The position numbers and the translations under genes were made by a program. DNA of 64,000 bases. Origin: Amphiscolops sp. MND2022 (Eukaryota). The stretch lies in contig OZ076409.1 of NCBI GenBank assembly GCA_964187785.1, positions 7,194,001 to 7,258,000 of the forward strand, given 5' to 3'. Position 1 is the stretch's first letter. Every line of letters begins with the position of its first letter. The notes under the pieces were generated by a model. That model saw only the letters and a list, made by a program, of their open reading frames with translations, did no database searches and had not been told where the DNA came from. Positions 15,425 through 57,204 of the stretch are shown one piece after another.

Positions 15425-15429
15425 TTTTT

Positions 15430-22073: not shown

Positions 22074-22141
22074 TAGATTAGAAGAACGAATCAAAATGTT
22101 TTGGGGATATGATTGAAGTTTTGTTTCAATTTCATGTGCAG

Positions 22142-30340: not shown

Positions 30341-31910
30341 GAACAAAAATGTGCGCCATTTTGTATTAAACTTCTTACTGATGTATTTGCATTAGTTTTT
30401 TCTGGTTTTGTGCTTTGGCGGTTTTGTATTTTGTAAATATGAACTTTTACTGTTTTTTTCTCTTGCCTTACCCTTATACTGGGTATTTGATATTTCATAT
30501 GTGGATTTTACATGTGTTGTTTCATGTACAGTTTGTGTTGTTGGTTATTTACTTGATTTGCTTTGGGTTTGAAGCGTGGGTGAACTTTAATTTACTTGTT
30601 GCCTATGTTATACAAATTTTTTGACCTATTTTGCATGTAATCTTCGTTAGCTGGTCTCAAAATGTTAGAGCGGTAGGCTCAGCTTTGTAAATCGTTCATG
30701 TTCTAGTAGAGTAGTCGCTTTCGTGACTACCATTGAAAAGCTCTCACTCACAATGCTCCATCGGTAAGTCAGCGTTGTTCAATTTAATAGCTTACATATG
30801 ACACAAATGGAAACTTGGTGGGTGGGTGGAGCCGCTCTGCTCCTATAGATGATTTGAACGTGTTGAGTGGTTGCTTTTATACTACTCTAGTCGGTTTTTT
30901 GACGGCTGTTCATAAACTTAGGTGTCATTTTGAGATGTCAATTACTTCGGATTTTACATATGTTTGTCTTACATGAAGCGTTCGTTCTGACGTCGTCATC
31001 GCTGATGTGTGTCTTGCGACGTCATCATTCGTGACGTGTGTCAAGTGTTAACGCAAATTCAATGGCAAATGGGTTTCCCCATGCCCATTAAATTTTTTGG
31101 CAAGGGGTTGGCACGCACCATCCCTTTTTTCGGATTTTCGGTCATGTTGTGAGAGTAACTGCATGTGCTTAATTATCTTGTTCTTTCTGCCGCGAGGCGA
31201 AGCCTACAAACCACCAGTAAGAACAAAGGCGTCACGACTTAGGTCGAAATGGGGGTGACGACTGCATGTTACTGTCCTAGGAATAGACTTATTTGTTTTC
31301 GTTTAGTTGGGAAGGTTATTTGCCGTCGCAAAAACCCATTCAAAACTAACACCGAATCCACTTGCTAAAGAGCAAGCTTCATCTGAATGTTTGCACAACC
31401 ACACAGACGCGCTTTTGATGACGCACCCACACAGCCGAACCACATCATGGTTTTTCGGGGCGGAAGTGTGAGTCTAGATTTTTGTGACGTAACTTAAGCG
31501 AGTCAGCTGTTTCTTTTACGTTCTCGATTGTGAACTGTGACGTTTGTAAAGGTAACTTAACGTAGTTGATTCAGAGTTGGTGGGTACAAAAATGCAAAGC
31601 AATTCCTTTGAAAGCGTGTGGTTGAGATTCTTCGTGAATTGCATAATTTAGTAGCTCGTTTGCATGTCTTTTACATGTACTTAACAATTTCCGGTTAGAG
31701 TGATGTGTTGCATATGACTGCATTACATGTATTTACTTTCGCGCTCAGCTGTCTGTATAGAGAGTAACAATTTACTCTGCCGGTAAACTCGAGTATGCAG
31801 GACAGTGAGTATCAGTCGTCACTGAATGGTGTAACGTAAATAGAATACTTCAATGGTATGATTGGTACATGTGGTGATATAGACTACATTGTATTGATTG
31901 CATGTTTTTT

Positions 31911-34900
31911 CTATTGGCTTGCAGATTTGCGTTGCATGAATTTCAAAAGTGCGGGCTTTGCTTGCAGTACTTGAACAAGGACGTTATCAAACGTTTTAGA
32001 CACAGGTGCTTCGCGAAGGCTATATCTGGTAATATTGTTTCGTGTGATCGGTTGAGACGTTTCGGCAGGTGATGTGGTCGATGCCGCATCATTATTTGAC
32101 AGAATTTGCTGTTCCGACTCGTGATCAGGTGTCGGTGTGTCTATTTCGTCTGGTTGGGTTTCAGGTTCAGTTCGGTGCGTACGGTCGTTGTGGATGGTTT
32201 CAGGGAGCGGGTTTTACAGAGGTGGGACCTCATGAACCCGTTTGTGCTCATAATAAATTGTTCCATGCTCAGAATCGATTATTTCAGTTTCGTTTGTGTC
32301 GAGTTCAAATGAGTTTTCAGCCGGCGGTGTTGGTTCGGGTGCAGGTAGATTGTCGTTGAATATTGACTCATCGTCAATTGCGTCGTTGGGTCACTGTAGT
32401 GTCGCGCTGCATCGTCGTGTATGTCTTCAACCGGGTCATGTGGTACGAATGGGCGGAACCGGCATTCTATGTACACACTGCGTTTTGAAGGTACCGACTT
32501 TTCTGACGATATAATTCGATTGTGTCAGGACCTTAACCACTTTGCAAGGTCCTTCACATTTGAAGGAGTTAAAAGGGGTTTTTTTCCGATTGCGTGCTAA
32601 TTTTAGGATTCAGTAAAAAGACAAAGTTGTTTACTTTTAATGGTGATGCTTGGGCTTTTCGATCATAGTACGCTTTGTACTTATGGAAGGCTCGGATTAT
32701 GTTGGTATGAGTTTTTTTTAATTTGGCATTCAGATTGTCCACTAACGACTGTGTATCAGTGGCATTTCTCGGTGAACTGAGAGGGTTGCCAAATTTTAGG
32801 TCTAGTGCGTTGTATGGCACGCGGCCATGGAAAACTTCCGTTGGTGAACATTTCAGAGTTTGGTGGTAAGTCGTATTGTGCGCCATGACAGCGAGATTGA
32901 CGTATCGGTCCCACTGTGGGCGTTCTGCGGAGACGTTTATTTTCAGAATCTGTTTCAAACGTTGATGCGACCTTTCGATCATCCCAAAAGTTTGGGCATG
33001 TTTGATTGTCGCGTGGGAGACTTACATCCCGGCTTTGTCCATCAGTTCTGTTATGACTTGCGATGTGAAAGCAGAGCCTTTGTCAGTGATGATGTGCTTC
33101 GGTACATATGCATGTTTCGTGAAAAAGTTTAGCAGGGCGTCAACGACGGATTTAGTATCAGGTTTACGGATCGGATTAGCAAACAGGTGCCGTGAGAAGT
33201 AGTCACAGGCCGTCAGAATGTGTGAGTACCGATTAGATTGCGGTAACTCACCGACGAGGTCATTTTCCAGGACATCTTCAGGACCGTTGCAGCGGTCATA
33301 GATTGGTTCAAGTGGTGGTGTTCCCGAGCTGGGTTTTATAGGTTTCGCTTTAATACAGTCTAGGCAGTTGTTAACAAACTTTCGAACTTTTTCGGCTAAG
33401 TTCGGGATGTAGTACTTTTTCTTGAGTTCACCAAACATTTTTGAAGCTCCAGTGTGTCCCTGCATGGGGTCGCCATGCATCGTCCTGATTATGGCTTCCG
33501 TAGTTTCTGGAGGAACTACAATTTTTCGGTAAGCTAAGTTTTCTACGTTGTCGAAAAACTGTCTGTACAAAACGTTGTTGACGACTTCAAGTCTTTTACG
33601 GTTTTTGAAAAGTTTTTGGAAAAAGGTACTTGCAAAAGTAACTTGGTTTGGAGGGGTTTCTTGCGCAGTAAGGATCCTAATTACCCGTTGAACGTCACTT
33701 TTTTCGCCTTGAGCCTTAACAATTTCTGAATTCCCCGAAGGGCATACCTGATTTACCGTGTGAACCTGGTTCCGTTGGTAGAATCGGGTGAAGAACAGTG
33801 TTGGATCAGAGGGCGTCACAAACGGTTGCACCTGTCGGTTTTGATGTCGTCAATGCGTCTACAGTACTGTTCGTCGTCTTCGTGACGCCATTGAGGGAAC
33901 ATCGCCAGGAGTGACTGCATTGTCGGGTTCGGTGATGTTGTTGCGTCAGGCACATTCGTCTCGTCTGGATTGTATTCTTCCTCCTAATCATCTTGCTTAG
34001 GCGTTTTTGATGCCAGATCAATCTCGACTTTGAAGACTGGTATCTCATCATGTAGTTTGAGGTGGATTCTGTTTTTCGGGTGGATGTCGATTCTGGACAG
34101 GTAGTCAGCTGCTGGATTTTCGACTCCAGGTACATGGGCCAGAACGAAGTCGAAATGGAGGGCTTGATCACAGTAGTTCCATAATTTTGGTGGTATTCCT
34201 TTGGACTGGAAGAATCTTGTGAGAGCTTTGTTGTCAGTCATGACAATTGTTGGTTTCTTCACTCCCCACAGGATATGGGCGAACTCGTCAAATGCGAAGT
34301 GCATGGCCAGGATTTCTTTCGCGTACATCGTGAGTGACATTTTGCCCTCGGTGAACCTTTGAGATCCAAAGGCTACTGGTGCATATGACTTCGTTGGTCC
34401 ATTGTTGGTTTCAGTATAGTCTTCGATCAGAAAAACGTAGCCGGTTGCGTGCTCGCTAGCATCGCACATAATCACTAGTTGTTTGTCCGGAAGTGGTAAT
34501 CGCAGGGACATCTTGGCAGCATTTGCGAGGTTCTCGTTGATATCGAATATGGCGTCTTTGTGGATCTGGGTGAGTTCGTACTTGACATCTTTCAGTAACA
34601 ACTTGTATAGTGGGACCAGTTTCTCAGCTAGCCTCGGGATGTACTGACAGTAGAACTGTACAAATCCAATAAACCGTTGTAGTGACTTCACAGACGTCGG
34701 CAGTTTGATGTTCTCCAGAAACTTTTTCTTCGATGAGCGCGATGCCTTTGGTAGTGATGCTTCTGCCAAGAAATTCGAATTCGGGGTGACCAAAAGCACA
34801 CTTCGCCATTGACAGCTTCAGACCGGCCTGTCTGATTTTGTTGAATACTGCTTCAATGTTGTTGACTAGCTCTTCGACAGTGTTGGCGGCAATGCCGATA

Positions 34901-36025
34901 TCGTCAACGTATTGTGCGCATTTGTCTGCCTTGACGAAGGGGTCCAAGTACTCACGGACAGTACTGTTGAAGGCTGACAGGGACCGGTTCAAGCCCTGGG
35001 CTAATCTGAGGAAGGCGAAGGTTCTACTTCCAAAGTTGAACGCAAGCAACTGGACTGACTGTTCATCCGCCATCTGAAGGCAATGGTACGCCTATGAACA
35101 ATCCAACTTGCAAAAGTAACGTTTGCCGGCCATGTGTTGCGCTGCATCGGCCATCGTTGTCACAGGGTGGTTGTGTTGATTGTAATCGTTCTTCAGTAAG
35201 TGATTAATTCTTCTGAGATCGACCAGGATCCTGAGTTTTCCGTTTGGCTTGCGTTGGGCGAAGATAGGCGAAGTGTATTTACTATACGGTATTGTGGTGA
35301 TGATACCGTACTCTTGCATCAATGCCAATTCCACCAATAAATCGTCTTCAAATTTGTTGGTGTGGGCAAGCTTTGGACATAAACTGGTTCGTGGTGTTTT
35401 GGAGTCAACTTCATCTTGAGTTCGGTGTTGATCCCGATATCCAGTCTGTGTCTCGCGAAGATGTCGTGGTAATTGACCAATAGTGCCTCGATCTCTTGCT
35501 TCTCATGAGGGTTCAGTATTGATTGTTCCCACTTGAAGTTCGCCAAGAATTCTTGTCGTTGTTCCTCACTTGATGTTGGGTCCAGTTTTTCTTCAGCTCT
35601 GAGTTTGACGATCTCGTCGTAGATGCGTCTCTCAATCTTGTTGAGCTTTGACGGGTCGTCGCATGTCTCAGGGGTGGGTACCATCGTCTGTCTGTTTTCT
35701 CATTTGGGTCCTGGAAGTTGTGGTTCAGAACTGCCGTGGCCTCGTCTGGGTATTGCGTGATCAGGTTGAGTTGGTGGCTCGTCATCGGTTGCAGATTGTT
35801 TGCCTGTTTTGGAGTCATAATTTTGAATGACGCCACTGCTGTCCCCACATTGATCGTGATCTGGTAATCTAGTTGGTTGGCGATCTGCACATGGGATCGT
35901 CCCTCTCGGGTCTCGCTGAGAGCCGGAGATACCAGTAAATGTGAACGCCTCTCGAAGGCGGGTAGTCCTTCCACGGTACCAGTGATGTTTCCCAGATCTC
36001 GTTCAATTACCACTGGGACGAACAC
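31911..36025 (-). pseudogene. pol of element 2 (dUTPase-like, RT, RNase H, integrase; protease deleted; many frameshifts)
   Basis: ORF fragments 35513-36025, 35319-35684, 35092-35337, 34624-35073, 33984-34799, 33022-33831, 32569-32982 align to the 45255-48692 protein; ends RYSLREAP...stop at 31911. Confidence 0.92.
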
Positions 36026-37303
36026 TTGTTCTTTCTGAAGTCCTTTCTGAACTGTCTATTTTCTTCCGTTGGCTGTTTGGTATACGGAACACTTCTGTAA
36101 GCTGAGGTGGTCGTGTTCCTGTGATAACAGTCTCGAGCAGAGTGTCCCACCGTTCCGCAAATTTGACACACGAGTTTTGAGTTATACTTGGGTCTGTTGT
36201 CTGGGTTCTGGGTAGCTTGGGTTGGTTGCTGTGGTTTTTGACTGGCGGGTTTAGCTTGTGCTTCTTCTCGCAGTCGTTTCTTGCATTCCACCCACTTGTG
36301 TCCATGTATGCCGCAGTGACGGCACTGCCCGTCGAACTTTCTTTTCGTCTCTCTGTTTTGTTGGGGTTGGACGATTGATGTCGGAGGTGTGGCTGCATTT
36401 GGTTGTGGTGCACGTATTTGGTTGAACGGTTGGGCATTTGTAGTGTTCTGGAGGAGTTGTGCATACTGACTTCTTCGTTGCACGAACGTCCTGATTTCTT
36501 CCATGGTGGCGTCATGTTTTCCCGCCATTGCCAGTTCATTCTGCATATGGACTGGAAGTTTCGCGAACAGGAATGTTTCTGTTAGGTCGTTTGACCTATC
36601 GCCAAAAGCTTGTTTTGCTACTTTCTTAAACTTGTTGAGAAAGTCGTTAAATGTTTCAGTTGCGGGGTCGTACCGCATTTGGTCAATTGTGTATTTGGCC
36701 ACCTCTTCCAGGTCCTCTTTGGCATACTCCTTCTTGAAATAACGTAATACTTGGGCGAGTGTTGTTTGAGTTATTATTTTCAGTGATTGCCAGAATTCGA
36801 TGGCGTCATCACGGAACAGGCTTTGAAAATACGTCAGTTTTGTTCTTCTGACAGTTTGTGTTGATGTGATCGGAGATGATTTAGCAAGAGGTGCTCGAAC
36901 TTGTTGTATTTTTCCCTGTTTCCCCGGAAGAGCGAGACTTGGGTTTGTAGGATTTTCGGATGTTGCAGGTTATCCGACACTGTCATGGCATTGTATACCT
37001 CAAGTGATGGCTTTCGGTCACGATGTCCTCCATTTGGTTGGTGGATGACTGAGGGTATTTTGAAGTGGATTGTCGTTGTGGGTTCGTCTGCGTGTTACTG
37101 GTGGTTGCTCCTGTCACCATGTCGGAACGGGTCTCATGTCCTATTGAGACCGTATTGAGGTCGTTCCCTTCTCTATTGCTAGAGGAAATTTTCTCCGTAA
37201 GTATCAGCACGAGATTTGGTAACTCTGTTATCTGCCTGATCATCTCAGAGAACCTTTGATTCACAGACAATTGTTCCGGTTCATTTCTACTATGTAGTAA
37301 GTT
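36007..37303 (-). pseudogene. gag of element 2 (frameshifted; N-terminus lost in the LTR rearrangement)
   Basis: Capsid-like LFAKLP; knuckles CRHCGIHGHKWVEC and CQICGTVGHSARDC; joined directly to the dUTPase-like region near 36028. Confidence 0.88.
37107..37119 (-). promoter_or_regulatory. PBS of element 2 (TGGTGACAGGAGC)
   Basis: Directly follows the LTR end CA; identical to the element 3 PBS; resembles the complement of a tRNA-Leu 3' end (inference). Confidence 0.85.
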
Positions 37304-38322
37304 GCCATGCCTGATGCATGAGAATACCGAATAAAGATGTGGTTAACTACACAACATCCAAGAAACGAAACAAACCAACAGACGATACGGGAGAATAGTT
37401 GAAGGAAAAGAATGTAGTTTACCACACAGCATCATCAAACCTGAAATTCAAAACTTTCACATAAACCATTCATATTTAGTTTTTCAAATAGTTTCGTCCA
37501 TCTGCAACCATAATCATAAACTTGCTACATGTACCTTCCAAAACAACTTTATGATACACTATATGATGTAGTTGGCACGCCATCATCAGATTTCCATTCA
37601 ATGCAGTTAGTCATGTAACCATCATTTATATATAATGTTCTAGTCATACGATGTAGGTAGCATAACCACATTGCCGTGCTGTGCGAACATACCAATTAGT
37701 GAGTCATGTAACCATAGTAACGAAAGTACATTATATTCCAGTGCAGTGTTAAACTAAAACTCAAATTGCGCAATTACCAACCAAGGTGTGAATGAACGCA
37801 AGAGTATGATTGGTTGATGTGGTCACGTGACCATCGTCGCCATAATTGACACCAGACAATATAGTACCACCAGTAGAAATTGGATAGTTAGAAACGTGCA
37901 GTTGCTTACTACATCAGTATATTGATATTACAATTTTCAACATTTGTCAACTTATTACCTACAATAACCAATAAAACTTCAAACTCTTACACCTTCATTT
38001 ATGGTCAATACTAGATCCAAGACGATCAAAAAAACACCTACGAATATGGACGGAATAGACAGGTATAGCGGTACCGAAAGCGAAAGTAGCATTCCTGAAG
38101 TACTGACCAGAGATCAGATTAGAGAATTCGACGACGGAAACTTACTACATAGTAGAAATGAACCAGAACAATTGTCTGTGAATCAAAGGTTCTCTGAGAT
38201 GAACAGGCAGATAACAGAGTTAAGAAATCTCGTGCTGATACTTACGGAGAAAATTTCCTCTAGCAATAGAGAAGGGAACGACCTCAATACGGTCTCAGTA
38301 GGACATGAGACCCGTTCCGACA
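37304..38322 (+). repeat. Inverted copy of the element 2 3' end (pre-PPT sequence, PPT, full LTR 37413-38322)
   Basis: Reverse complement of 24252-25268, joined to a 184-bp U5 remnant (37120-37303). Confidence 0.9.
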
Positions 38323-39528
38323 CTGTGCGACTTTCGTTCAATTTTTTTTCCACCAAAGGGTCCCTCCTTCAATTTTTTTGGAGTTTTTCAACAGTCTGGA
38401 TGTTGAAAAATCCCAAAGGGTCCCCCTTCCAGTTTCTTCGGCATTATGAGACTTTTTTCAAAACGTTTCTTCATAAAAGGGTCCCCAGTTCACCAATACT
38501 TTGACATTTTGATGTCCTTCTGCTATTTTTGATCCTTAGATATGGCGCCGACTTGGGTCGTTCCCGGCTTGTTATACACATATGTGTATTATCTTTAGTT
38601 CTGTTACGGAACCATTATTGCTACCATTTTGAAAGAGTATAGTTTGGCATACAAAAGAGATCAGTACTTAAAACTTGTTTTCATCTAACCAAGTAGAAAT
38701 TGAACACTTGTAATTTCGTCGAAGCAATATTTTACGGAGTAAAAATTGAACAATATGCATAAGCTGATCATTTTGCGGTGTAAATTCTTCAGAGGGCGTT
38801 TTCAGAAAATGTTTTAATTTCAAAAGTCAGAGATCAGAATCGAAGTGGCAAAGTTTGTGCCGAACACTTTTTGCGAAGAACAGCGCTTCTCGAGATAATG
38901 CATGATATCAAAATCCCAGAAGTCTAAAAATAACGAAGCGTTTTGTTAGTTTCTTTTGTTGTTTTTGTGTGAGTTCAAAACAGAAATAGCCCTGTTGCTC
39001 CAATTACTTTTGTGTCTAAGATTCTGTACAATTTTATTGCGATTTCAATCAAGTTGAGATTTGAAATTGAGTATCTTTAGCTTTTTTTGTATCCTGGTGA
39101 AGAAAAACGTGAAGAGAGTGTAATAAACTCGTGTGAAATTTTTGCAAGATTATGCAAGATTATGCAAGAAGCAGATTACGCTGTTTGATTCGTGCTTACT
39201 ACAAAAGGAAAATTTGAAAGAAGAGAACCATTATTTGTGTTTTTTTTTAGATTGAGATGACCCTATTTTGGTTTCTTTCAAAAGAAGTCAAATTTGATAC
39301 ATTAAACATCAAGCATGATAGAGCTTATTAGTACTGTTTCTTAAGCTAATAAAACTATACCGCATTTTTGAAAATCAAATTTCGTTAATGGCAAAACAAT
39401 GTCATCTTGCAGTGTTCCCAGTTTGGTTTTTGATTGGTGGAGACTCTTGAAGCACCCAATAGTCTTTAAAAGAGATTTTGAAGTTTCTGAAAATTTACTG
39501 CCTTGAATGTGAGGTTGTGTTTTCTCAG

Positions 39529-39643
39529 AACGCTTGAGGACAAAGAAGCCCAAAAGTTGCAGCCAATGAGAAGCGTGAGTCAATTGGTGAAGGTTCAGCC
39601 CACATCCCCGTGTTTCTCCGAAAACTTGTGCAGCGAAATATCG
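39529..39643 (+). CDS. Putative host gene exon D
   Basis: TGTGTTTTCTCAG acceptor, TCG|GTAAAT donor; TLEDKEAQKLQPMRSVSQLVKVQPTSPCFSENLCSEIS; phase 2 to 0. Confidence 0.5.
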
Positions 39644-39676
39644 GTAAATTCACAAGTATTATACTTTGTAGGTTGG

Positions 39677-40377
39677 AACAAGACGGGAACGTCTAAGGTC
39701 GACGCTATATCTAAGGCAAAAAGTGAATCCTTGCAGAAATTGAATGAAGGTATTTTAAAACATACTTGCAATCTAACAATTAATAGTTTGAAGAAAGAGT
39801 TTTTCAGCTAAATATCGATTTCAAAAACTGCGGTTTTGCGATTAACAAAAAAAGTTTTTAACATTGTAAAAGGGGGATCTCTGGGCTTTTTGAGGATTCA
39901 GTTTATTGCAAAATATCAAAAAAAAATTGAAGGGGGACCCTTTGGAGACGTTATTAAGTTTTCGAAAAAAAAACGAAAAATGAGAATTTTGAAATAGTTT
40001 CAAAAGGGGAGACCCTTTGGGCTTTTTGAAACTTAAGTTTGCCGCATACTATCAAAAAACTTGAAGGGGGATCCATTGGAGACAAAAAGTCTCACGAAAA
40101 AATTTCGAAAAAAGTTGCACATTGCAGAAAAAAATTCAAAGGGAGGAACCTATAGTCTTACCCCGTTTTGTATCTTATGTTAAAAGTGGAGTAAATCAAA
40201 GGGGGACACTTTGCACTAACTTATATGCGTTTCCGGTTGCTTTTCCAGTAGTTTAGTAGTTCTGTAAAAAGAAGTGTCCACTACGCATTCTGTTATCTGA
40301 CGAAAAAAAGCAAGAAAAAACTTGCCACTGTATTAGTCGGGCTTTTTTCCATAAAAGGAAAACGCGCCAACTAAAAA
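39677..40377 (-). mobile_element. HINE/Helentron-like repeat
   Basis: AACAAGACGGGAACGTCT...GCGCCAACTAAAAA termini; GGGGACCC subrepeats. Confidence 0.65.
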
Positions 40378-40563
40378 TGTTACTTTTGTCTTGGCTTTTT
40401 CCTCAATGTAGCGTGAGTTTTGGGCCAATGCTTTTAGCTGGTACTGAAATTGTCAGACTATTAAAGTCATTTTTTCAAAACACACCAATGCGATGTAAGC
40501 GGCTAGGGCGGCAGAAATGGCAATTAGCATGTGGTTAGCGCTTTGGCTTCCCCTTCTGGTGTT

Positions 40564-40740
40564 TTTTCGGAACTGTGCGACTGTTTCCAAAAAAACTTTT
40601 TTTTTCATTCCACCAAAGGGTGCCACTTTGGTTTTGTGAAAGCTTTATCTTTTGTCAACTAAAGTCACCACAAAACCAAAGTGGGACCCTTTGGTGGAAT
40701 GAAAAAAGTTTTTTTGGAAACAGTCGCACAGTGCCGAAAA
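40564..40740. repeat. Fold-back inverted repeat (~75-bp arms, ~30-bp spacer)
   Basis: 40564-40638 is the near-perfect reverse complement of 40669-40740. Confidence 0.85.
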
Positions 40741-40897
40741 AATAATGCTAAAACTTTTATGATGAAGCAAGGCTCAAACAGCTCAGAGTGTTTTATATAA
40801 GCACAAAGGTATTTCGGTGTAATCTGAAAAATCTCACGGTGTTGAAAATTTTCAAAGGAGGAACTCTTTGATCTCTTACAAAAGTGCCTTTGGTATG

Positions 40898-42469
40898 TGT
40901 CCCAGGCGTCCGCCTGTGATGGAAATCTTTATGCAATTAGTCACGACTACAGGAAGGCGCAGCCCAACACCCTCCCACTGAATTAAGTCTTACAAGCAAA
41001 ACTATATTTGTTGCCTTAAAAGTCATGTAAAATCCTATATATTTCATTTTGTACAAGCTATATTATGTAATTCTATGTATTAATACGAGTTAATTGGACA
41101 CCAAGGCGTACAGGTAAAGGAAACGCGTTCAAATGTTTTCTTGCCTGTCGCCTTGGTCCGCAAGTCCGATTAACTCGTCATCCAATCATAGCGCAGTGTT
41201 ATGTAACCTTTACTCGTGCTAGCATAATAGATTAAAGGACCAGACAGCTATATGCCGCCTGCTAATAAAACGCCGGGCTGTACCAGTCTATTGGACACTG
41301 AGTCCGCGCTTTAATTGAGAGTGCTATTCTAACTAGCAGTACTGGTTATGTAATAATTAATCTTTTGATAACTAATAAAAGGCGCTATTGGTCCTCAAAG
41401 GACTGATTTAATATTTTAGACTTAGTTTGATGGTGTTGCTTCGTATGTAATTTGCGCAATATATTTAGTTTAGAATATATGTAAAATTACTATCTATACA
41501 TGTAGTAAGCATTTCATACATGTAATATGTATTTCATACATGTAGTACGTTGCTTAGTATGCATGTAAGCAGTTGCTTGTCCTAACGGACTCATGGTCCC
41601 GCCGCCATATTTGCCGCCAAGAGGGACCTTTGATCTATATGATGTAATGTTGACGTTGCCTGCTATTTATAGATTGTAGCTATATTTAGAAAGCCCTTAA
41701 GGCTATTTTTAGAATATGATCACCATTTTATTGAGTGTCATGTAGATTCAAATATATATAACCGGGACTGGTGGTCCCGGGGAGAGAATTATTCTGATGA
41801 TACTTTGATACGTTACTGTTGCATTACTGTTGCGAATTGTTTATTAAAACTACCCGTTCATTTTCACTTTGCAAGCCCGAGATATTAATTTAAATTCTTG
41901 CCTCTTGCAATAATCTCTTATGCATTCTACTAGACGTCAAAAGGCTAAAGCTAGGAGATCTAGAGAAATGGACATGCTGTCCGACTATGATAACCTAGAC
42001 GTGATGTTGGGAAATGAAAATAATAATCCCATTGAAAGAGAACTAGCCGATGTGATAGATCAGTCATCGGCCCACGGGGACGATGATACAAACGTGTACC
42101 ATGAAAATGAGTTTAGAGATTACTTACATGAAAATGAACCTTTGAGGCAAAATGAAGTCAGGCAATCCTTTGAGGCCTTTTCAAGTGAGTTTAATCTTAG
42201 ATTGTCTCAAGAAATGGAATCTATGATGTCAATAATGCATAGCCAAATAAATAGGGCTATAACAACAGCTATAGCTGAAAGAGTTATTCCAGAAATCCAG
42301 AATATTGCGAACTCGATGTCCTCTATGGGACACAGGGACACTGAGGCCAGTTCGTCCCCAAATAGTCAGGAGAACAGGGAAAGCGCACCCGGGCCTAAAC
42401 TAAAAATTGCAAAGAAAGATTCAAGATCTGTAGGTGACTTAAGAGATACCATAGGTCATGGTTCTTACA
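40898..42469 (+). repeat. 5' LTR of element 3 (1572 bp)
   Basis: About 11 substitutions and one TA indel versus the 3' LTR by eye; TATA-like 41753-41760; ATTAAA 41843; gag ATG 41920. Confidence 0.96.
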
Positions 42470-43609
42470 TGGTGACAGGAGCTACCGACACCCAACCGCA
42501 AATTCCCGAATTTCTGACCGGACGAATCCACTCAATCCCGAACCTAGAGAGACAACAATCCACACACAATATCTCTCTGGACACGACTCTGCCAGCCCCG
42601 GCCCCAGAGGCTCCTGAACCTCCTCAGGACCCGTTTAATAGACTAGCCGACGTATTGGTCAATTTGCAAAACAAACCGCAATCTATGACCATCAGACCCG
42701 TACAAACAACCCCGATGACATTTGATGGTAAAAGTGAAAAATTTGAGCTCTTTGAGGACTTGTTCCATACGATGATCAAAATGCAGCCCACAATGACAGA
42801 ACAAATGAAAATTAATCACTTTCATTCTTTGCTACGAAAGGGAGCATTACAGACATTCAGGAACATAAACTCAATCAACCGTCAAACTCTCGAGGACGTA
42901 CTGGTCATATTCCGGAGGAAATATGTCAAACCGGAATCACAAGCAACGGCAAAGCATAAATGGCACCGATTGACCTTCGATCCAAGTACAATGAAACTAC
43001 CAGACTTCTTGGAAGAACTGAACCAAGGTGCAGAAAAAGCATTTGGGGAAAACGCTAAAAGCATGATTGACAGCTTGTTATACGCGAAATTACCCCCAAA
43101 ACTGAAACGATCTGTCAACATGGCCCGTCTGGAGAACGGCACGTATGAAGAAATAGTCGCTCATCTTGAAAGAGAACTGGAACTCAATGCATTAGAAGAG
43201 TCAGATGATCTGCCAATGGCCACTATGGCCTCGGCGTCCACGAGCCATAACAATTTACTGTCCAATGGCATCAACACAAATAAAGACGCCCAATGCTCAT
43301 ACTGCAAGGCGACGGGTCACTATTACAAAAACTGCCCGAAACTCAAGAAGAAAAAGGAAACGGAGGACAAAGACGGTGAAAAAACCTCAGCGTCCAACTT
43401 ACCCACCGTGTGACACATGTGGCAAAAAGAACCACCCAACCGAAAGGAGCTGGCAAGGCGCTGGCGCCCACCTGCGACCCAAAAGGATGCAGACAGAACA
43501 AAATGACCGAAATGCTATAGACTCCGAAGGAAAGCCTAAAAAAGCAAATGACCCAGAAACGGCTACTTCAAGCCGACCCAATACTAAAAAATCTGATTCA
43601 AAAAACTAA
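41920..43609 (+). CDS. gag of element 3 (one frameshift near 43380)
   Basis: FDGKSEKFELFEDLF capsid-like motif; CSYCKATGHYYKNC; second, degenerate knuckle CDTCGKKNHPTERSW in the shifted frame. Confidence 0.9.
42470..42482 (+). promoter_or_regulatory. PBS of element 3 (TGGTGACAGGAGC), inside the gag frame
   Basis: Directly after the LTR end TTACA, where the 5' and 3' copies diverge. Confidence 0.9.
43600..43606 (+). promoter_or_regulatory. -1 ribosomal frameshift slippery site A AAA AAC
   Basis: Canonical X XXY YYZ just before the gag stop; the -1 frame continues into the 43612 ORF. Confidence 0.75.
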
Positions 43610-43611: not shown

Positions 43612-46600
43612 TTGCCACGACTCCAAATACATGACTATATGTCGGTTCGACAATATGTCATTTCAGACCCTCCAATAATCAAATACAGCCAAACAATCAA
43701 GGATACAAAAGGAATTCCCACTGTTGTCTGGCAGCAACAAATGGAAAAAGCCTGTATTCGAACTTATAAAATAGTACATAATGATCGTCCAGACCGATTT
43801 TACGAAATCGACTATACTATGAGACTCAATTCCGTCCCTTACCCTTGATCGAAGATTATCACCCTCAATACCCCGATCCTGATTACGGCAAAGACCCGTA
43901 TTGGGACGACGAACTCTACGACAGACAAAAACTCCAGTTTAGACAAGACGAATATCCACCAACGGACGACGAGGATGATCCCCCGATAGTGGACAACAAA
44001 CTATCCAGGGCCCTCATTGAACTTTGGCAGCCAAATTCCGAAGCACTGTTAGAAGAAATAGAGGAAACTCAAGAGCAAGAAGACTTTCAAGGCCCCGACA
44101 GCCTTTTAGACGAAACAGCCTTCTTGCACATCCTAGTGGAAAAACAAGGAGAACCGTCATACGTTCCCCTCTCCACCAACCTTGGCCTCAAAATCAAAAG
44201 GCGGATGCTATATTTCCCAATGGACTTTGGAGAACTAACATTAGATGGTCTCATAGACACTGGGGCCCACTCCAGCGCGATACCAGAAGCTGACTTTAGG
44301 AAAAAACGGCTACTTGCACCCCAATCAATAGTGAAAGAGGGTCCTGCCCCGTCATTCCAAATTATGGTCGCAAATGGAGACCTGGAAACTCCGAAGAGTA
44401 CAGTAGAACTGAAGTTCGAAGTAGGGTACATAGAGTTCCACGAAATCTTCATAGTGATGGAAAAATTATCCAGCCCCATAATTGGACTTATGTTCTTACA
44501 AAGAAACCACACAGTCCTAGATATGCGCCAAGGCATACTTAACTTCCCCTTCTTCTCGATGCAATTGAAAACAGCTGACCATAAGTACTCCAATGTAATG
44601 GAACCTATCCTCAACCCCGAGGATATAACGATTCCGCCAAATGGACGTACAATCATCCCTATCCAATCTCAAATTTATGCAGAAAAGGCTGTCACTGGAA
44701 TCTTACAACCCAGTGACCTTCTAAACGAAGAAAATGATATAACATTTTGTGCCGCCATAGTCACACTGGACGAAGGGACTACGAGGATCCATGTCAACAA
44801 CTTCACAGACCAGCCCTTTAAACTCAAAAAAGGGATGCACATAGCGAATTTCTCAGTGATGACTCCAGAGCAAATGAAACACGTTAGGCCAATAGACCCA
44901 GTGTCCACTTGGCACCTACTCAATGAAAATGAAGAAGATGCTATTTATTATATCAGCAGCCTTCTCAAAGCCAACACGAACAATGACCAATACGAACAAT
45001 ACTGGTTTCCAACAACCGAAAACCCAGGGGACGCAGAGTCACATACTCCAATACAAAAGAGAATTCTTAGAGAATTACGAAACCTGCAAGAAGCAGAAAA
45101 ACTAAATCCACAAGACAATGAAGAATCTCGACAAAAATTCCTCAGTAACTTTGACTGGAAGGACTCAATGCTACAATAGCATGAAATCAAACAGATAGAA
45201 GCGCTATTAGTCGAATTTTACGACATATTTGCCCGTCATAGGTTTGACATTGGTATGAATGAGGAGTTCACGGTCAAATTGACCCCGAAGGACGACTCTC
45301 CTGCCTACAGCCAGAGCTTACCAACTCCGGTCAATTTAAAAGAGGACATATTGGTCGAATTAGCGTCACTACACAAATATGGTATTATAACAACATTACC
45401 ATTCTCAAAGTACGCTAGCCCTATCTTTGCACAAAAGAAGCCCAATGGGAAACTGCGACTACTGGTAGACCTCCGGAAGATCAACTATCTCATTTCTGAC
45501 GACTATATCAACAACAACCATCCAGTCAGCACCTTAACGGACGCTGCACAACATATGGCCGGAAAGAAACTTTTCTGTAAGCTTGACTGTTCGCAAACGT
45601 ACCATTGCCTTCAAATGGCGGACCAACGGTCTATAGAGATGTTGGCCTTCAACTTTGCCAGCCGAACGTTTGCATATCGAAGATTGGTCCAAGGTCTCAG
45701 TAGAGCCTTATCGGCATTCTCCAGTTTTATGAGAGAATATTTGGACCGTGTCATCAAAGCCGATCAATGTGCCCAATACGTGGATGATATTGGCATCGCG
45801 GCCAACGACGCTGAGCATCTCATTAAAAATCTCAGAGCAACTTTCGAATGCATCCGAGAGGCTGGATTGAAATTAACGATGCATAAATGCCACTTCGGAG
45901 CAACTGAGATTGATTTCTTAGGAAGGACAATCACCCCTGAGGGTGTCAAGCCCCAGAAGGAACGAGTCATACAATTCCTAGAAAAAACGAAATTCCCAAA
46001 ATCCAAAAAAGCCTTACAACGTTACCTCGGATTCCTTAATTATTATAGAAACTACATACCGAGGTTATCAGAAAAATTAGTCCCTTTCTTTCAACTATTA
46101 AAGAAGGACGAAAAGGTCTTAGTCACAACGGAATTGATTGAAAAATTCAACGAGATCAATAGAGATTTGGACAGATGCACCCAGCTAGCCCTGAGGCAGC
46201 CCTTGCCAAATCGACAGCTAGTCCTGATGACAGATGCTAGCTTCACAGCAGCCGGATATGCTATACTTACTGAAGATGATCCAAATCAGAAATTTACCTC
46301 AACCAAGAAATCCTATGCGCCTATTGCATATGGTTCAAAAACTTTTACTCCTTCACAGCTTAACATGTCAATTTATGCGAAGGAATTTTTAGCCATCTAT
46401 TACGCCTTCAAAGAATTTGGACATATATTCTGGGGCACACCTAAGCCGGTGATTATCCTCACAGACAACAAATCGGTCACAAGGTTCTTCCAGACTAAAA
46501 TAATACCGCCGCCATTATGGAACGCGTGTGACTTTGTTATTCAGTTCAATTTCACTATAGCGCACATTCCAGGCAAAAACAACACAGCGGCGGACTACCT

Positions 46601-48692
46601 GTCCCGCATGGAAATGGACCCCACTGAAAAGTTAGTCCTAAAAATCCGAGCGGACGTTGAAACCCAACCTATTGAAGTTAATGTCCAATCAGCCGGCATG
46701 TCTGAAGAAGAACAAGTGTTCTTTACAGAAGAAGACAATGAAACAGAAGAACAAATTTGGGAAAGGAAAAAACAATCAAAAGCAGGACTCAAGGTCGATG
46801 AGACCGTCATCCAAATCGATACCATATCTGAAAATGTAGTAGATGAAATTACCAATTTCACTCAGAAACTACGCAGAACCAACCAAATACTACTAGAACA
46901 ATCCAAAGATCCGATCTTGCTTCATTTAAAAGCAAAAATTCAAAATGAAGAATACTCTGAAGAAATCCTTCAGCAGGACATTCGGTATAAACATTATTTA
47001 AATAACTTAGACCGTATAGTCCTCAAGGACGAAATAGTGACCCGACAGTATTACGACGAAACGGGACAAATCAAATACCACCAAATCTTACTGCCAAAGC
47101 ACCTGTTGAAAGAACTACTGCAAGCAATACATGGCACGGCACATCGACATCCAGGCATCTCTAAAATGCTGCAAGAGATCCGCCAAAAATACTACTACCC
47201 TGGCATAGCAAAATACGTTAAAAAATGGGTAGAAGGATGCGAAACGTGCGCTAGAGACAAAAGAGTCCCAAATAATACAATTACACCAGAATTGTTAAAC
47301 TTACCCGAATGGGACCTTGGTCCAGAAGATGCCATGCAGATAGACTTATTACCAAACTTACCGACTAGTGGCGGATACCAGACGGTGATGACGGCTATAG
47401 ATGTATTCTCAAGATACTTATTCGCCTACCCGCTAATTGAGGCAACAGCCACGAATGTAGCCAAGGTGATAATTGATATCATGACGAAACATTCATATTT
47501 ACCAACAACTCTCATCACAGACAAAGGGTCTGCATTTACATCGACCATCATAGCTGAGATAACTCAAATTTTGGGTATAACACTCAAATGCGCTACTACA
47601 AAGCACCCGCAAACAATTGGCAAACTCGAAAGGACCCATGCCTCACTCAAAACAAATTTGAAAATGGCCTCAGGGGAATATCGACGCCAATGGCATAAAT
47701 ATTTACCATTAGCAGTACTCAACTACAATACCACATACCACTCTAGTATTGGATGTGAACCGAGCAAAGTCTTCCACGGCCGGATTCCCTATAACGTCCT
47801 AGACCACAAATTGGGAAATAACCCCAATAAAAATTTTCTGCCAACTACAGAATTTGCGGAGGAAGTACAGCAGAGGACACAAATCCTCATTGATCAAACA
47901 AAAAAGAACATAATGCAGTCTTATTTGAAATATAAGGACTATTACGACCGAAAGGCAAAGGCTGCCCCGCTTAAAGAAAAGGACTACTGTTTTAATCTAC
48001 AGCCTAAAGCGGACAGTCAGGCATCAAAAATTCCTTTCAGGGAATACAGATGGATTGGCCCGTTCGTCATACAGAAAGTACTGTCCAACGACAATTATAT
48101 TGTCCGTCGCCTAAACACAAACAAAACTCAAATACTTCATCGCATTAGACTAAAGAAATTCGTCCCGAATGCCCCTTTAGAGGACAAATACGATGGAGAA
48201 AAATTACAACCTGACAATGAGATAGTAATCCCGCAAGACGATTTGTACACTATCTCATGGGAAGTAGACTTTGAGTACGACTTATTTGAACCGAGGAAGG
48301 AAAATTGGACAGACGTGGCCACACGCCGGCCGACGGACGCCGAGTCCACTAATACGGACAATGACGTTACCGACGAGGAAAGCGCTAGCAATGAAAGCTG
48401 CAGCGAGCGCACGACAAGAAATGACGTCACCGAGAAGCAAATGAGACCGCGAGAGAACAATAGCAGTGACGAACCGTCCCCGCCGAATGAAACGCCAAAT
48501 GGGACTGAGAATGAAAATGACGTCACTAATGATTTAAAAGATACGGAAAACGTTTCAAATACAGGCGCAGATATTACCGTGCCCGGAATATCAGAAAATG
48601 GAAATTCAAATGAAAATTCGAGCCCTAGAGGAGGGAAATACAATCTTCGACCTAACCCTACCCCCAACTTTACTGATGAATACAGATACTAG
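43612..48692 (+). pseudogene. pol of element 3 (PR, dUTPase-like, RT, RH, IN) with a frameshift near 43845 and an in-frame TAG at 45177
   Basis: LIDTGA, QYVDD, MTDAS, HGTAHRH...CETC, TDKGS, GKLER, WIGPF. Confidence 0.95.
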
Positions 48693-48925: not shown

Positions 48926-51900
48926 TTAAGATTTAGAAGTTCCAGGAGCGTTTATATTGGAGGACTGATTGGCGTCTGATCCACTCGTGGGCTTGAAGCA
49001 AACCTTTCTACTCTTCTCGGGGGACGGCTTGCGGGATTTACCTCCTTCTTTCGATGAGGAACTTGAGACGCACTCAGGGTCGGGCCGGACACCTTTACAC
49101 AGAGCTTTATATACAGCGACCAGAGTCTTGTGAAAATTAGCCCTGCCAAAGCTGTCAACGTGAGTCCAAGGATCTCCGGGGACATTGCCGCAGCTGAACC
49201 GCAACTCCAGATCTTTGAATGTACCCAGGGAAGCTTCAGTAGTGCAAGCAGCTACTGCGCTCGAAACGTTGGCGAGATAAGACTGGGCGGGCATGATTAT
49301 GTCGAACAGCCGACTGCGGGGTTCACTACAATCGACCCCAGAAAACTTGACGGCTGGGAGCTCTGGCGATTTGGATGTGAGGCACAAACAGCTCAGTTGG
49401 AAGATGTGGAATAAATGTTTGCGCATCTTCAGCTCTGGCATTCCCATCAAGGTCACAACCATGTCTGTGAAGACCTCTGGGGTGTTCTTGGCTCCAGAGT
49501 TGACTTCCCGAAAGTACTCTAGAAATTCGACGTACTCGTCGCGGATGTCGGCCTCTGAGGAATTCTCCAACCACCCTCGCAGGCTGAAGGAACGGTGGAG
49601 CGCGGAAAAGCAATATGTGGCCTGCTCAAGAGGCAGGTTCAGGAGGGCTACCGGGTCGAAACTGGCTAGACCCCTGACGATACCAGCATTGAGGCTAATA
49701 TCGGCCAAAAAGACTTTCAGCAGGTAGACGAGGTAGCTTCGGGCCTTGGTGGCGAACTCGTCCCGGGTGGCTTCAACGGCGGCTTCTGTCTCTTCTGGAG
49801 TCAACTGCTTTTCGCTGTAATTTCTCTTTACTCGCGCAAGACAACAGGCATCGAGATTCTCTTTCAGCTTCAGCCGACTCAGGAAATCGCGGTTTGACAA
49901 CTGCTTCCAATTTTGTCCCTGCATGTCATCCAGGGCCTTCCAGTCCAAAATCTCTGGAACATGCTTGGGAAGCAGTGCACGCGCAGCTAACTTGCGGATG
50001 AAGGTGTGGAATTCCCGGAAGGTGTAGAATCCACTGTCCCTTCGCTGGGCAAACTGGCTCTCGAAGCTCTTGGTGTCTGGAATACAAAATATATATGATT
50101 ACCCTAATTGGTCCATTCTACAGCTACGGACCTAAAGTTGGCAGTCTACTACATTTTGGTCAGGTTTCTTGTAAAAGCAAACAAAAATAGGACTCTGTGG
50201 CCATGTGACAAGACAAAAGAGGTAGATACTAACAATCACGAACGATCCGCGCGAAGAATTCCAGTTTGATGATGAAGAAATCATCACCGATGATCTCCCA
50301 TTCCAAACTCTGGGGTTTGTGTTTGACACCCTGGTGCACTTGTGGGGGAGCAATCTTGGTGAGATACTGGTGGATGGCCTTCCAGTTCGCGATCAGTTCG
50401 GAGCATATGGCGGGCACGGCAGAAATCTCCAGATGGCAGGTCGACATAGCCTATAGACAATATCAAAATTAAAATCAACCTATGGTTGGACCTACAGTCG
50501 ATGTGACGTTGTCCTTACCTTGACGAATTCAGGCATCAGTGCAGCCCAGGGTTGTCCGCTGCAACCGTCTAGAAAGGTGACCAGAAACTTCAGCTGCGAG
50601 AAGAAGCTAATGGCCCCAAACACGCTGCCCCATCGCTCGTGCATCATGCTGGGCAGACTCAGTGCATCGAATCGGAAGGGGTACTCTATTCCCTTCTGGA
50701 AGAATTGAGAACGCTCAAGCAGAGGGATCAATTCTGCGGGACACCCAGACACACTCACGATTTGAGGCTGAGCGGACAACACGGACAAGAGGCGAGAAAG
50801 AGCAAGCAGGAAGCCTGCAGCAGGTTCCGAGGCTGTGCGATAACGCAGTAGTCGGACAACGTTGAGACAGTCGCCCTTCCAGAATCGGATTGACACGAAA
50901 CTATAGGTGCCTCGTGTCTCAAACTCCAAGGAGTACTGTCCAGTGACGCTGACGTGGTACGCAATGTCCGCGATACCGCAGAGGAAAATGTGATGGAAGA
51001 TCGCCTAAAATGAACCAATAGGGATGAAAATATGCTCAGGCTATAATAGCCTGAAGGCTCTTGAGGCTTAAAATGGATGATACTTACAGTCAGCGTGGTA
51101 GAACCCCAATCGTAGGGGGAGAACAGGTTCTGGTGATTGGTCACGGTGCCAATCTGCGCCCACAGCAGCTCGAGGACATGGAGGTCTCCGCATCGGGGAG
51201 CGAAGAGGGCTACCATGGAGATTTGGACGCACAGTCTGATTTCCTCCTGCCCAGCAACAGATCCTAGCCCGGCCATGTGGTCCTCGTAGAACGGATAACT
51301 ACATCCCATCTCGACTAGGGGAACCTGCATGAAAAAGGGTTTCTCACGCTCTAGCTCAAGAGGGGTCAGCACTTGTCCTTTCTTCCCTCTGACTTCATGG
51401 ACAATTCGACCAGTCACTGCGTCCTTCTTCTTCAGGTGTTCGTATCTCCAGCGCTGGTCCTTGCGGAAATGAGCCTCGCACTGGAAATGCCGCACAATCT
51501 CTCGGGCGCCTTTGGAGAACATGGACACGTTGGTCTTGCATATCTGGCAATAAAACTTGTGTTTATTATGCTCAGGGTCCAACGGTCCAGTAACAAAAGT
51601 CCGAGTCCACTGTATTCCCTTGAAATAAGCCTCCTTCATTATTTTGCCACTTCGGGCAGGAACTCGGCGGCGCTTGCGGGGAGGACTAACGGCAGAAGCT
51701 TGATCCCCTGTCAAGGTAGCTAATGGCTCATAGTCCGTGGAGCAGAACCCAGGACTAGGAACTTGCTGGCTGGTTGACGGCCCACTTACACTGAGGGAAT
51801 CTTGAGCAGGAGGACTAGGAGGAGGGGCAATGTTGAGTTCTTTTCCGGTTCTTCGAGAATTCACCACGAACTCATCCTCAGAACTGAGGGCTCCACTTGT

Positions 51901-52863
51901 GTACCCTTCGGTACCAGCGTCACTATCCAGTCCATCTAATCCAGGACTGTCTGACTTCTTGCGGAAGCACTTGACTCGTTGCCGATTAGGACTCTGTTGA
52001 ACATTCTGTGACCTGATTCCTACTCGGATGGCTGCTTCCAAGATGTTCTTCATCTGATGAAGGGATGAAGTAATGGTCTCAGAGGACACAGCGCGCAGAA
52101 TAGAATGTACTTGGCCCTGATTAAAGGCCACTGTGGCATGCCCGACTGGAAGGATACTCGGATTCGTTTCGCTGAAATGTTGATTGATGAGGGTCCGAGC
52201 AGAAGCAGACAAAGGCCTAGTAGGGCTAAGAAGCTTCGGGGACGGAGCATCAGGCAACCCAGCTGAAGTCGACGGTCCAGCCTCCTTGAGGACTTCAGTC
52301 TCCACAACGCTCAAATTCTCCATGTTAATCAGGAAAGGGGATTCTTTAAGGGTCTCTGCGCCAGAACTGTCAAGCAACTCTTCGTTGTCACTTGTGTCAG
52401 TTTGGAAATAATCTGCCTTAGCGACAGAAAAGCCAGTTTCACTTTGGATGTCAGCCGCAGGGTCGACATCGACTTCACCCGACTCCTGATTGGAGGCTTC
52501 TCCCACTACCTGAGGGATGGGGTCCGACTCGGAGGCTTTCTCAATAGCTGGATGGACAGCCTTATCTGCAATAGCAGTGCTAGTAGGGGGCAAGAAGGAG
52601 ATGTCAAGACCAAGGCCCTGGCAACCCAAAGTCTGCAGTTGACGGTCAATGTAGGCGGAAATGCTTTCATCCGTAGAAGGGCTTGGGGTCGGAGCAGTCT
52701 TATCAGGATTATCTCCTGGCGGCACAAGTTGTGTGGACTCAGTGTCTACAGTGATCGAAGTGGCCTGACTGGTACCAGCTTCTTCGGGAATGGCAACTTC
52801 TTCTTCAGCCATGGATGCAGTAGCAGTGGCAGGAACAATATCATTTCGCTCTTCGGACGACAT
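48926..52863 (-). CDS. Antisense 4-exon gene, ~1209 aa, BED-finger hAT-transposase-derived protein
   Basis: Exons 52863-51088, 51004-50519, 50450-50234 and 50076-48926 are joined by GT-AG introns into one uninterrupted frame; FYCQIC...IVRHFQCEAH finger. An alternative ATG lies at 52917. Confidence 0.85.
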
Positions 52864-54117
52864 GTCTAAACAGAAAGAGATAAACTCAAGCGGAAAACTT
52901 CCTGAGAAAGAGTCCATTACCGCATTAAAAATCTTCCGGAAGTAGATATTTCGAACTCAAGTGAACACTTGTGTTATGGGACAGGAAGTACGTGAATGAA
53001 ATGAGAGCCCTGATCAAGCCTCAGATTAATTCATTACTAAAATAGAAACAAAACCTGAAAAGCTACTGACCTGTTTGAATGCAAAGAAGGATGTCTTGAG
53101 AGGGGAGTGCTGTGGACAGTTAGACTGGTGGTCACTGAATTGAAAGCTGAGCGATCAGTAGAGGAGGATGACGAAGCTGGACTGGTGACAATACAGCAGC
53201 AGTTGTGAGGAGAAGACAAATTCTTCTTTGATGAGGGACAAGAAAGATTACTGGAGATGAATTAGCGAAAAGGGACTCAGTGTCGATTGTCCTAGGATGA
53301 CCCAAGAAATCCACAAAAGACGTAATCGGAAGAAATTACAAATGAGTACTTCAAATGAATACGGAGTAAATACGACTAGAAGACTAAAAGACTAAAGACG
53401 ATTAAATACTGGACGATAATACAAAGAGTAACTGGAAAGAATTTGAAAAGAATGAATTCAAAAGAGAATTGGCAATGTGACAAGATGTCAAAGTTGGAGT
53501 TCGTGGCTATACAGTTTGGTGTCAAATTTACAAGATATTTACAATTTACACTATTATGTGGATAGAGTCTGCCAGCGATATCTACATTCTTTCATTTATC
53601 TTATTTCGAAACTTTACCATTTTATAAAATATTTCATGATTTTACCAGGATTTTATTTAATTTCAGGTCATTTTATATTATTCCTTATATGGATTTACGC
53701 CCTTGGGGAGCCATTTTTACTCAAGAGAAATTTTGCTGCATTCCTATTGGTTGATCAGAAACGCTGATGGACGGCGTGGCCGTCTGCCATAGCTTCACCC
53801 TCTTGAAACTTTTAAGTGCTTGTTGAGTGTTAATAAACACTTGAAGCGACGCTCTTAATATGGAAGTGTTGATAGAGTTGATGTATGTCAACAAAGCCTC
53901 AGTCGGCATTTTCAAAGAAGACTGAGCGGCTAGTTAATAGACTCTAGAAAGAAGGAATTTTGTTATTGAAAATTTAGTCAGCAAGGAAGGGAGAAACCCC
54001 GGGAAACTGAAACGAAAACTCCCGCAAGTCGACAGAAGGGGAAACCGCCATTGTTTCAGTTTCACTTTTGAAAATCAGCAGCTTCTCAAAACTCAAGATT
54101 TAAAACCTTTCAGTCAA

Positions 54118-56469: not shown

Positions 56470-57204
56470 GTATGTAAAACAAACTTTGAGCCTGGCTTCA
56501 TCATAAAAGTTTTAGCATTTCAACTGTATGTAATTCATAAGTTCTGTCAATCATCCCCATTTTAGATTTATTTTAGTTGTTTCACTTCTCATTTATATCG
56601 TTGAATATACGAGATACATCAAACGTTCGAACCTTTGTTGTTTAAAGAAAATACTGCCAATGTAATGCCAGGCAAATTTTTCCTTTTAAAAGCCTTTTCT
56701 GATTGTTTAGACGGACTTTGGATTTTCGATTTCCCAACAAGAAGCACCAGAAGATTTCCAGTCTCTATGGGACACAGGGACACTGAGGCCAGTTCGTCCC
56801 CAAATAGTCAGGAGAACAGGGAAAGCGCACCCGGGCCTAAAATAAAAATTGCAAAGAAAGATTCAAGATCTGTAGGTGACTGAAGAGATACCATGGGTCA
56901 TGGTTCTTACAGTATGTAAAACAAACTTTGAGCCTGGCTTCATCATAAAAGTTTTAGCATTTCAACTGTATGTAATTCATAAGTTCTGTCAATCATCCCC
57001 ATTTTAGATTTATTTTAGTTGTTTCACTTCTCATTTATATCGTTGAATATACGAGATACATCAAACGTTCGAACCTTTGTTGTTTAAAGAAAATACTGCC
57101 AATGTAATGCCAGGCAAATTTTTCCTTTTAAAAGCCTTTTCTGATTGTTTAGACGGACTTTGGATTTTCGATTTCCCAACAAGAAGCACCAGAAGATTTC
57201 CAGT
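56321..57204 (+). repeat. 442-bp tandem duplication spanning the LTR end, TSD and flank
   Basis: 56321-56762 equals 56763-57204. Confidence 0.92.

Follow-up and report, generated by a model that had tools for sequence, protein, structure and literature searches.

Sequence analysis of a 64,000-nucleotide stretch of the Amphiscolops sp. MND2022 assembly (contig OZ076409.1, positions 7,194,001 to 7,258,000; hereafter, the window) revealed a Ty3/gypsy lineage in which the Gag gene very probably starts inside the long terminal repeat (LTR), with one frame that is read across the LTR end and the primer binding site (PBS). The original prediction, that the Gag frame opens deep in the LTR, and that its protein takes in both the LTR end and the PBS, was supported by the frame itself, by its continuity, and by its retention across families.

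Two elements of the window

Element 3, judged by its sequence, is a young Ty3/gypsy retrotransposon; its features lie on the forward strand, unless stated otherwise. The 1572-bp 5′ LTR (40898–42469) and the 3′ LTR (54896–56469), both of the form TG...ACA, are 99.2% identical in a self-comparison of the window, and both flanks of the element carry a 5-bp GTATG target-site duplication (40893–40897, with its partner at 56470–56474). The PBS, TGGTGACAGGAGC, directly follows the 5′ LTR (42470–42482) and begins with TGG, and a short polypurine tract adjoins the 3′ LTR (54888–54895). Two TATA-like boxes were located in the 5′ LTR, one at 41036 and one at 41753–41760; the latter, a pattern match only, is nearest to the Gag ATG, and is a candidate promoter. 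Pol (43785–48692) consists of a protease, a dUTPase-like domain between the protease and RT (44616–44873; 26 bits, with a cut-off of 22), RT, RNase H, and integrase, and is interrupted by a stop at 45177–45179.

The Gag ORF of element 3 (41920–43413) encodes 497 amino acids and is broken near 43380, the Gag proteins of its relatives being 560–562 residues in length. Its ATG stands 550 nt upstream of the LTR end, and 183 codons plus one nucleotide (41920–42469) are LTR-coded. The frame then crosses the junction as SY/MVTGA, with the PBS read in frame, and proceeds into a capsid-like core (42721–43113), which is Ty3_capsid-like by its features and scores just below the cut-off for DUF1759 (24.3 bits), and into the first Gag zinc knuckle (43294–43341). 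The LTR limits and the ORF thus confirmed exactly the 183 codons, and the junction in frame with MVTGA, that had been proposed for this element. None of 5000 shuffles produced an in-frame, stop-free terminal run as long as that of the element 3 LTR. Codon-position bias was detected in the LTR ORF (p = 3.6e-4) and in the Gag core (p = 8e-4), whereas two upstream LTR stretches showed none (p = 0.77 and 0.99). The 3′ LTR carries a second copy of the LTR ORF (ATG 55920; codon 174 is a stop), and the two copies differ at five positions, all of which change the protein, and one of which creates a stop.

Element 2 (24247–38327) is bounded by a 5-bp CTGTG duplication, with the LTR 3′ (U5-type) end facing outward at both borders. 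Its 3′ LTR (24252–25269, reverse strand) contains an LTR ORF of 107 codons (322 nt), which starts at ATG 24573 and runs into the flank. On the 5′ side, a remnant of the 5′ LTR end and the PBS (37107–37303, reverse strand) is in frame with MVTGA, and only about 184 nt of LTR are left beside this PBS. An inverted, full LTR copy (37303–38322, forward strand), with its ATG at 38001 and no PBS after it, has its TG end fused to the 5′ LTR at a point some 184 nt within it. Such an architecture looks like the aberrant integration of two cDNAs, one of which then collapsed to a solo LTR. With the 5′ LTR rearranged, the Gag read-through of element 2 is not intact in the window. The original prediction had the count of 107 codons right, and its in-frame junction with MVTGA holds for the remnant; the two ATGs to which it tied that junction belong to the 3′ LTR and to the inverted LTR, and neither is followed by a PBS.

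Stop-free runs as long as the 107-codon ORF arose in 2 and 5 of 5000 shuffles, and codon bias was borderline (p = 0.054). The two full LTR copies of element 2 differ at 39 of 696 positions upstream of the ORF versus 4 of 322 within it, none of the four being synonymous. The change point falls either on the ATG or further upstream (p = 0.002 with all sites, p = 0.075 with runs collapsed), which lends weak support to a boundary near the ATG. Since all five differences between the LTR ORFs of element 3, and all four in element 2, are protein-changing, the copies in the window show decay only.

The 13-nt PBS is identical in element 2, and is therefore common to two families. The available portion of the PMC13524379 supplements contained no exact match to it; the closest among the tRNA rows compared was a Leu row, with 10 of 12 bases. 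A Trp primer was rejected, the Trp rows compared reaching at most 7 of 12 bases. No tRNA gene is present within the 64-kb window.

Several other features of the window were recorded. Long antisense ORFs lie between pol and the 3′ LTR in both elements, each with a C2H2-like motif: those of element 3 span 48926–52956 on the reverse strand (390, 170, and 733 codons, from stop to stop), and those of element 2 span 27485–30218 on the forward strand. The two sets are not significantly alike (BLASTP E 0.15), and have no Pfam match at cut-off; a BED/hAT likeness is at best tentative. A sense ORF of 347 codons (53941–54984, forward strand), which also lacks a Pfam match, spans the purine tract of element 3 and enters the start of the 3′ LTR. 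An exact 442-bp tandem duplication (56321–57204), comprising the last 149 bp of this LTR and 293 bp of flank, is either recent or an assembly artefact. A third element, at 2–8722 on the reverse strand, belongs to another gypsy lineage. Its gag and pol share one uninterrupted frame of at least 2907 codons, the region upstream is long, and its Pol is about 27% identical to that of element 3. Repeats of 60–150 bp, which form one dispersed family, occur in both orientations at 13000–24000, 38300–40800, and 57700–58500, and the insertion sites of elements 2 and 3 lie within or next to this family.

Retention and constraint of the LTR-coded domain

Relatives of the element 3 Gag were drawn from ENA records, and 2993 were identified among 8000 candidates scored. 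MVTG was located at position 166–184 in 118 of the best 120 of these 2993 relatives. Because a ranking with the full-length query favors full-length matches, a second search was performed with residues 184–480 alone. In this post-PBS-only ranking, 115 of 120 proteins retained at least 160 upstream residues, four started inside the LTR-coded part, and one had no match to the motif. The two larger clusters among those four (29 and 13 members) were found to be length mixtures, which include full-length members. A sample of 101 cluster members, into which the short clusters were deliberately taken, consisted of 50 full and 17 LTR-only proteins, 13 that begin inside the LTR part, two that begin at the PBS methionine, 17 that begin further downstream, and two with a truncated core. 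Judging from these sequences, the short Gag forms are scattered decay, and not a lineage without the LTR-coded domain. Among the Gag relatives searched, we found no lineage with multiple copies whose Gag begins at the PBS methionine.

The junction can also be followed as a footprint in the protein. Since the LTR ends in ACA and is followed by TGG, an NAC codon (Y, H, D, or N) is forced before MVTG. The 2020 representatives at 50% identity were ranked, and M[VA]TG was found in 33 of the best 150, internally in 25 and at the start in eight, the latter representing clusters of one or two members. Y, H, D, or N preceded the internal motif in all 25 distant representatives (background 17%), the LTR end being deduced in these distant families from the protein alone. 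The product of a 3′ or solo LTR is expected to lose similarity at residue 183, and to continue with a codon that starts with A. Similarity was lost at this residue in 24 of 314 proteins, one of them a broken 5′ copy, and all 24 continued with a residue encoded by an A-starting codon (background 44%). As the relatives share ancestry, neither these footprint counts nor those of the layout are independent. The LTR end, taken together with complementarity to the tRNA, accounts completely for MVTG, and the proposed triple constraint on att site, PBS, and protein was overstated.

Two sets of unusual proteins were noted at the junction. In protein P0315, a unit that extends from the Gag Met1 through the LTR-coded part to the PBS peptide occurs three times in tandem, followed by part of a fourth copy, and each restart comes about five residues after that peptide, as in a tandem ATG-to-PBS array; from the sequence, the restart point could mark an RNA 5′ end. 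In P0126, P0152, P0157, P0217, and P0265, [HDN]M-V-x-G-like motifs are repeated near the junction, and may have arisen when the LTR end and the PBS were duplicated in frame.

The upstream part comprises 104–223 residues in families that begin with M-x-x-T-R or a basic tip, and the best local identities between these families are 25–57%. The predicted M-x-[SN]-T-R start holds in both elements of the window. The basic stretch said to follow it is present in element 3, and not in the relatives of element 2, which have one or two K/R in the first 14 residues; a basic tip (at least four K/R in 14 residues) was seen in 12 of 15 proteins examined, and is absent from element 2's three relatives. When the 107 residues of element 2 were searched against longer proteins, 25 matches were obtained, of which 20 reach the PBS peptide (18 by pattern and two by eye), including clusters of 56 and 19 members, and five end in unrelated tails. 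The element 2 family is 25–28% identical to that of element 3 in the core, and has the same layout in these 20 of the 25.

Substitutions among the 120 close relatives indicated which parts of the LTR ORF are constrained. Private changes were evenly spread, with 0.73 per site in the LTR part and 0.66 in the core (range, 0.64–0.92 per site). Shared variants, defined as those present in at least five of the 120, numbered 1.3 per site in the LTR part versus 0.14 in the core. They were rare and conservative at residues 1–20, the basic N-terminal tip (41920–41979; 0.2 per site, mean BLOSUM +1.75), and at residues 81–135 (0.44 per site, mean BLOSUM +0.58, with a neutral expectation of about −0.14), whereas the linkers (residues 21–80 and 136–183; 2.2 and 1.62 per site) were neutral-looking. 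The pattern of these sequence changes indicates that the LTR ORF holds two constrained blocks between fast-changing linkers. When the LTR ORF was tested as a whole, the difference in conservativeness between shared and private variants did not reach significance (p = 0.06), and mean BLOSUM scores were negative in two of seven pairs.

The second block falls within a predicted helix. AlphaFold2 modeling with 53 sequences returned one long amphipathic helix at residues 62–135 (42103–42324; pLDDT 93–98 at 81–130), the remainder being poorly ordered. Hydrophobic positions recur every three to four residues along this helix, and are hydrophobic in 94–100% of rows. The three-copy prediction of residues 70–140 gave parallel, in-register packing, with a score of 0.64 versus 0.06 for the best control, at least 79% contact agreement between runs, and pLDDT of at least 77. 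In calibration, 21 of 30 solved pairs, and none of 23 single chains, attained the mark for complexes; on eukaryotes, it was attained by 17 of 29 pairs, none of 30 single chains, and only one of seven without an older relative. These figures refer to two copies, the helix was run with three, and a pass by a coiled coil may reflect memorization by the model. The models suggest that the LTR-coded helix probably oligomerizes. In a helical-moment test of ten families, four passed at 5%, three were borderline, and three failed, including element 3's own. A search of the ESM Atlas with residues 1–183 gave no usable match, and Foldseek gave no PDB match at E ≤ 0.001, a single helix being uninformative in such a search. 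On the helix, Pfam matches to CheZ and DUF2884 scored far under the respective cut-offs, and were discarded as the unspecific kind that helical sequence tends to give. Viral contigs and JGI metagenomes yielded no related DNA loci.

RNA start, strand transfer, and competing readings

If Gag is expressed from the LTR as proposed, the RNA would start in the 5′ LTR upstream of 41920, from a promoter at the TATA-like box at 41753, and ribosomes would scan and start at Met1 or at a nearby in-frame methionine, such as Met17. The context of Met1 is weak (C at −3), that of Met17 is better, and a three-codon upstream ORF is present at 41797. The product would begin with a domain in the matrix position, made up of the short tip, an acidic linker, the long amphipathic helix, and a further linker, followed by the LTR end and PBS as x-MVTG, and then by the capsid and zinc knuckles. 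The original prediction had been set against translation from the PBS ATG with a neutrally evolving LTR ORF. This appears unlikely, since, in a count from 41750, just before the nearest TATA-like box, the PBS ATG comes 22nd among the ATGs and is preceded by ten in-frame ones, at least 160 upstream residues are kept in 115 of 120 relatives, and two blocks are constrained.

The position of the poly(A) site decides whether the coding stretch belongs to U5 or, in part, to R. The signals that had been noted upstream of the ATG, ATTAAA at 41843–41848 in element 3 and AATAAA at 37970 in element 2, are indeed present, but poly(A) hexamers occur in the window at the rate of chance (132 versus 152 expected), and the ATTAAA is one of five on the sense strand of the element 3 LTR, one of which, AATAAA at 42246, lies inside the ORF. 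With a hexamer that is no better than chance, an almost wholly coding U5 and an unusually long strong-stop DNA are proposals rather than established features. Were the poly(A) site inside the ORF or near its end, for example after the AATAAA at 42246, Gag would still start in the LTR, and the coding part would be largely a long R, a reading that we consider possible though unlikely. The hexamer at 42246 is canonical and the ATTAAA upstream is weaker (with hexamers at chance rate), and breakpoints are found inside the ORF, e.g., between residues 136 and 145, as expected if strand transfer can take place there. Against this, distant relatives differ from one another in the residues encoded over 42246, a hexamer is located 26–72 nt upstream of the ATG in both elements, and the change point between the element 2 LTR copies, at or upstream of the ATG, points weakly in the same direction. 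Mapping of R/U5 by recombinant breakpoints was rejected, because the breakpoints scatter inside the ORF.

Accessory genes made from the 3′ LTR are known in the form of MMTV sag and HIV nef, and the LTR ORF might likewise be a U3 gene expressed from the 3′ LTR, with Gag made from the PBS ATG after a short leader. The ORF is indeed carried by both LTRs, and the PBS ATG has a G at +4; but the frame stays open where the LTR ends, the copies in 3′ and solo LTRs lead into unrelated tails, and the ORF is kept in frame with Gag in families only 25–57% alike, which would be needless for a separate gene. Together with the scarcity of starts at the PBS methionine (2 of the 101 sampled cluster members), these observations render an accessory gene quite improbable. 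That an A-rich U5 gives rise to the LTR ORF as a by-product, which is not translated and is maintained by constraints on RNA or DNA, is hardly credible, even though the linker changes are neutral-looking and the window copies differ only non-synonymously. The absence of such a run from 5000 shuffles, the codon periodicity, several in-frame indels that preserve the frame, and a hydrophobic periodicity that is kept while residues vary all speak against it, and the folding of the leader and junction RNA was not unusual (z = −0.13 and 0.02).

A Gag gene that opens in the transcribed part of the LTR would have consequences for replication. In the standard mechanism, copying begins with the stretch from the RNA start to the PBS, which yields the strong-stop DNA and comes to lie in both LTRs (PMC6894440). 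If the RNA starts upstream of the ORF, the LTR-coded domain would thus be copied with the minus-strand strong-stop DNA, which would measure at least 550 nt in element 3 and at least 322 nt in element 2, and be duplicated into both LTRs, so that each 3′ or solo LTR would carry a stop-less copy of the domain. Strand transfer would also reassort the LTR-coded part among subfamilies. Mosaics were observed among 132 near-full-length proteins, where one core type is combined with six N-terminal types and another with three, and seven proteins join residues 13–136 of one subfamily to the remainder of a second. Genomic gene conversion, as well as the more rapid change of the linkers, contributes to these mosaics or could account for some of this.

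Comparison with known elements and implications

Element 3 carries the traits of Ty3/gypsy (Metaviridae) members, including direct TG...CA LTRs, a 5-bp duplication, a PBS, a polypurine tract, and a pol order that runs from protease through RT and RNase H to integrase. The best PDB match of Pol was Ty3-G Gag-Pol (E 8e-45; the next, 1.5e-27), in a ranking of matches rather than a tree. The Gag has a capsid domain and a zinc knuckle, and, of the 11 relatives that were scanned, 5 score above the threshold for DUF1759. No env family match was found after pol, where the antisense ORFs and the 347-codon sense ORF are located. Membership of Ty1/copia (Pseudoviridae) was ruled out, as the integrase follows RT; the likeness to Ty1 is one of layout only, the Gag frame opening in the LTR and taking in the PBS.

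According to the available parts of the sources, the GAG start codon of Ty1 of Saccharomyces cerevisiae lies in the 5′ LTR, 40 bp before the LTR end (PMC10512236), and its PBS is inside the GAG ORF (PMC4974528), so that both systems share a Gag start in the LTR and a PBS within Gag. They differ in superfamily, and in that 40 nt are LTR-coded in Ty1 versus 322–550 nt in the window, or 8–14 times as many; the LTR-coded part of the window elements also includes a predicted oligomerizing helix. In Ty3 itself, as described in the same portion of PMC4974528, the PBS segment is beside the 5′ UTR, and not deep in GAG as in the window elements, and Gag3 has 290 residues, compared with 470–570 for Gag in the window lineage. 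In its dUTPase-like domain, element 3 resembles, by description only, the rotifer elements Juno, Vesta, and TelKA, basidiomycete elements, and planarian Burro, in which a dUTPase is placed between protease and RT (PMC5408684 and PMC6431247, in part). The rotifer elements have LTRs of 159–551 bp, and the part of PMC5408684 available does not mention LTR-coded Gag.

In animal Metaviridae, the LTR usually contains an AATAAA, after which U5 begins with a stretch rich in GT (PMC3601003). No LTR-coded Gag is described in the accessible parts of the reports on Oikopleura Tor (PMC4402516), on errantiviruses (PMC13524379), or on an acoel genome (PMC9911081). A report of a long LTR-coded Gag domain was not found in the literature searched, outside of which lay most subscription papers, Repbase, GyDB, and bioRxiv supplements. 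The layout as such has precedent, but none was found for its scale, or for a probable oligomerization domain inside the LTR.

LTRs are usually treated as non-coding regulatory repeats, and annotation tools confine their search for gag to the region that they enclose. In this lineage, a third of Gag, which includes a probable assembly domain, sits in the LTR across many families, which affects both annotation and dating, in that LTR divergence between subfamilies would be under protein constraint. A strong-stop DNA of at least 320–550 nt is predicted, any solo LTR is a potential source of a truncated Gag peptide, and the lineage offers a natural system in which to ask how much retroelement coding sequence can shift into the terminal redundancy. 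A bolder proposal, which we advance as speculation and consider doubtful, is that the LTR is a self-contained gene for a Gag oligomerization module, with promoter, start codon, and stop-less coiled coil, which is reassorted at strand transfer, and from which 3′ and solo LTRs express peptides. If so, truncated coiled-coil peptides from these LTRs would bind full-length Gag and limit transposition, thereby acting as a copy-number brake; alternatively, 3′ and solo LTRs would fuse the module to flanking host sequence.
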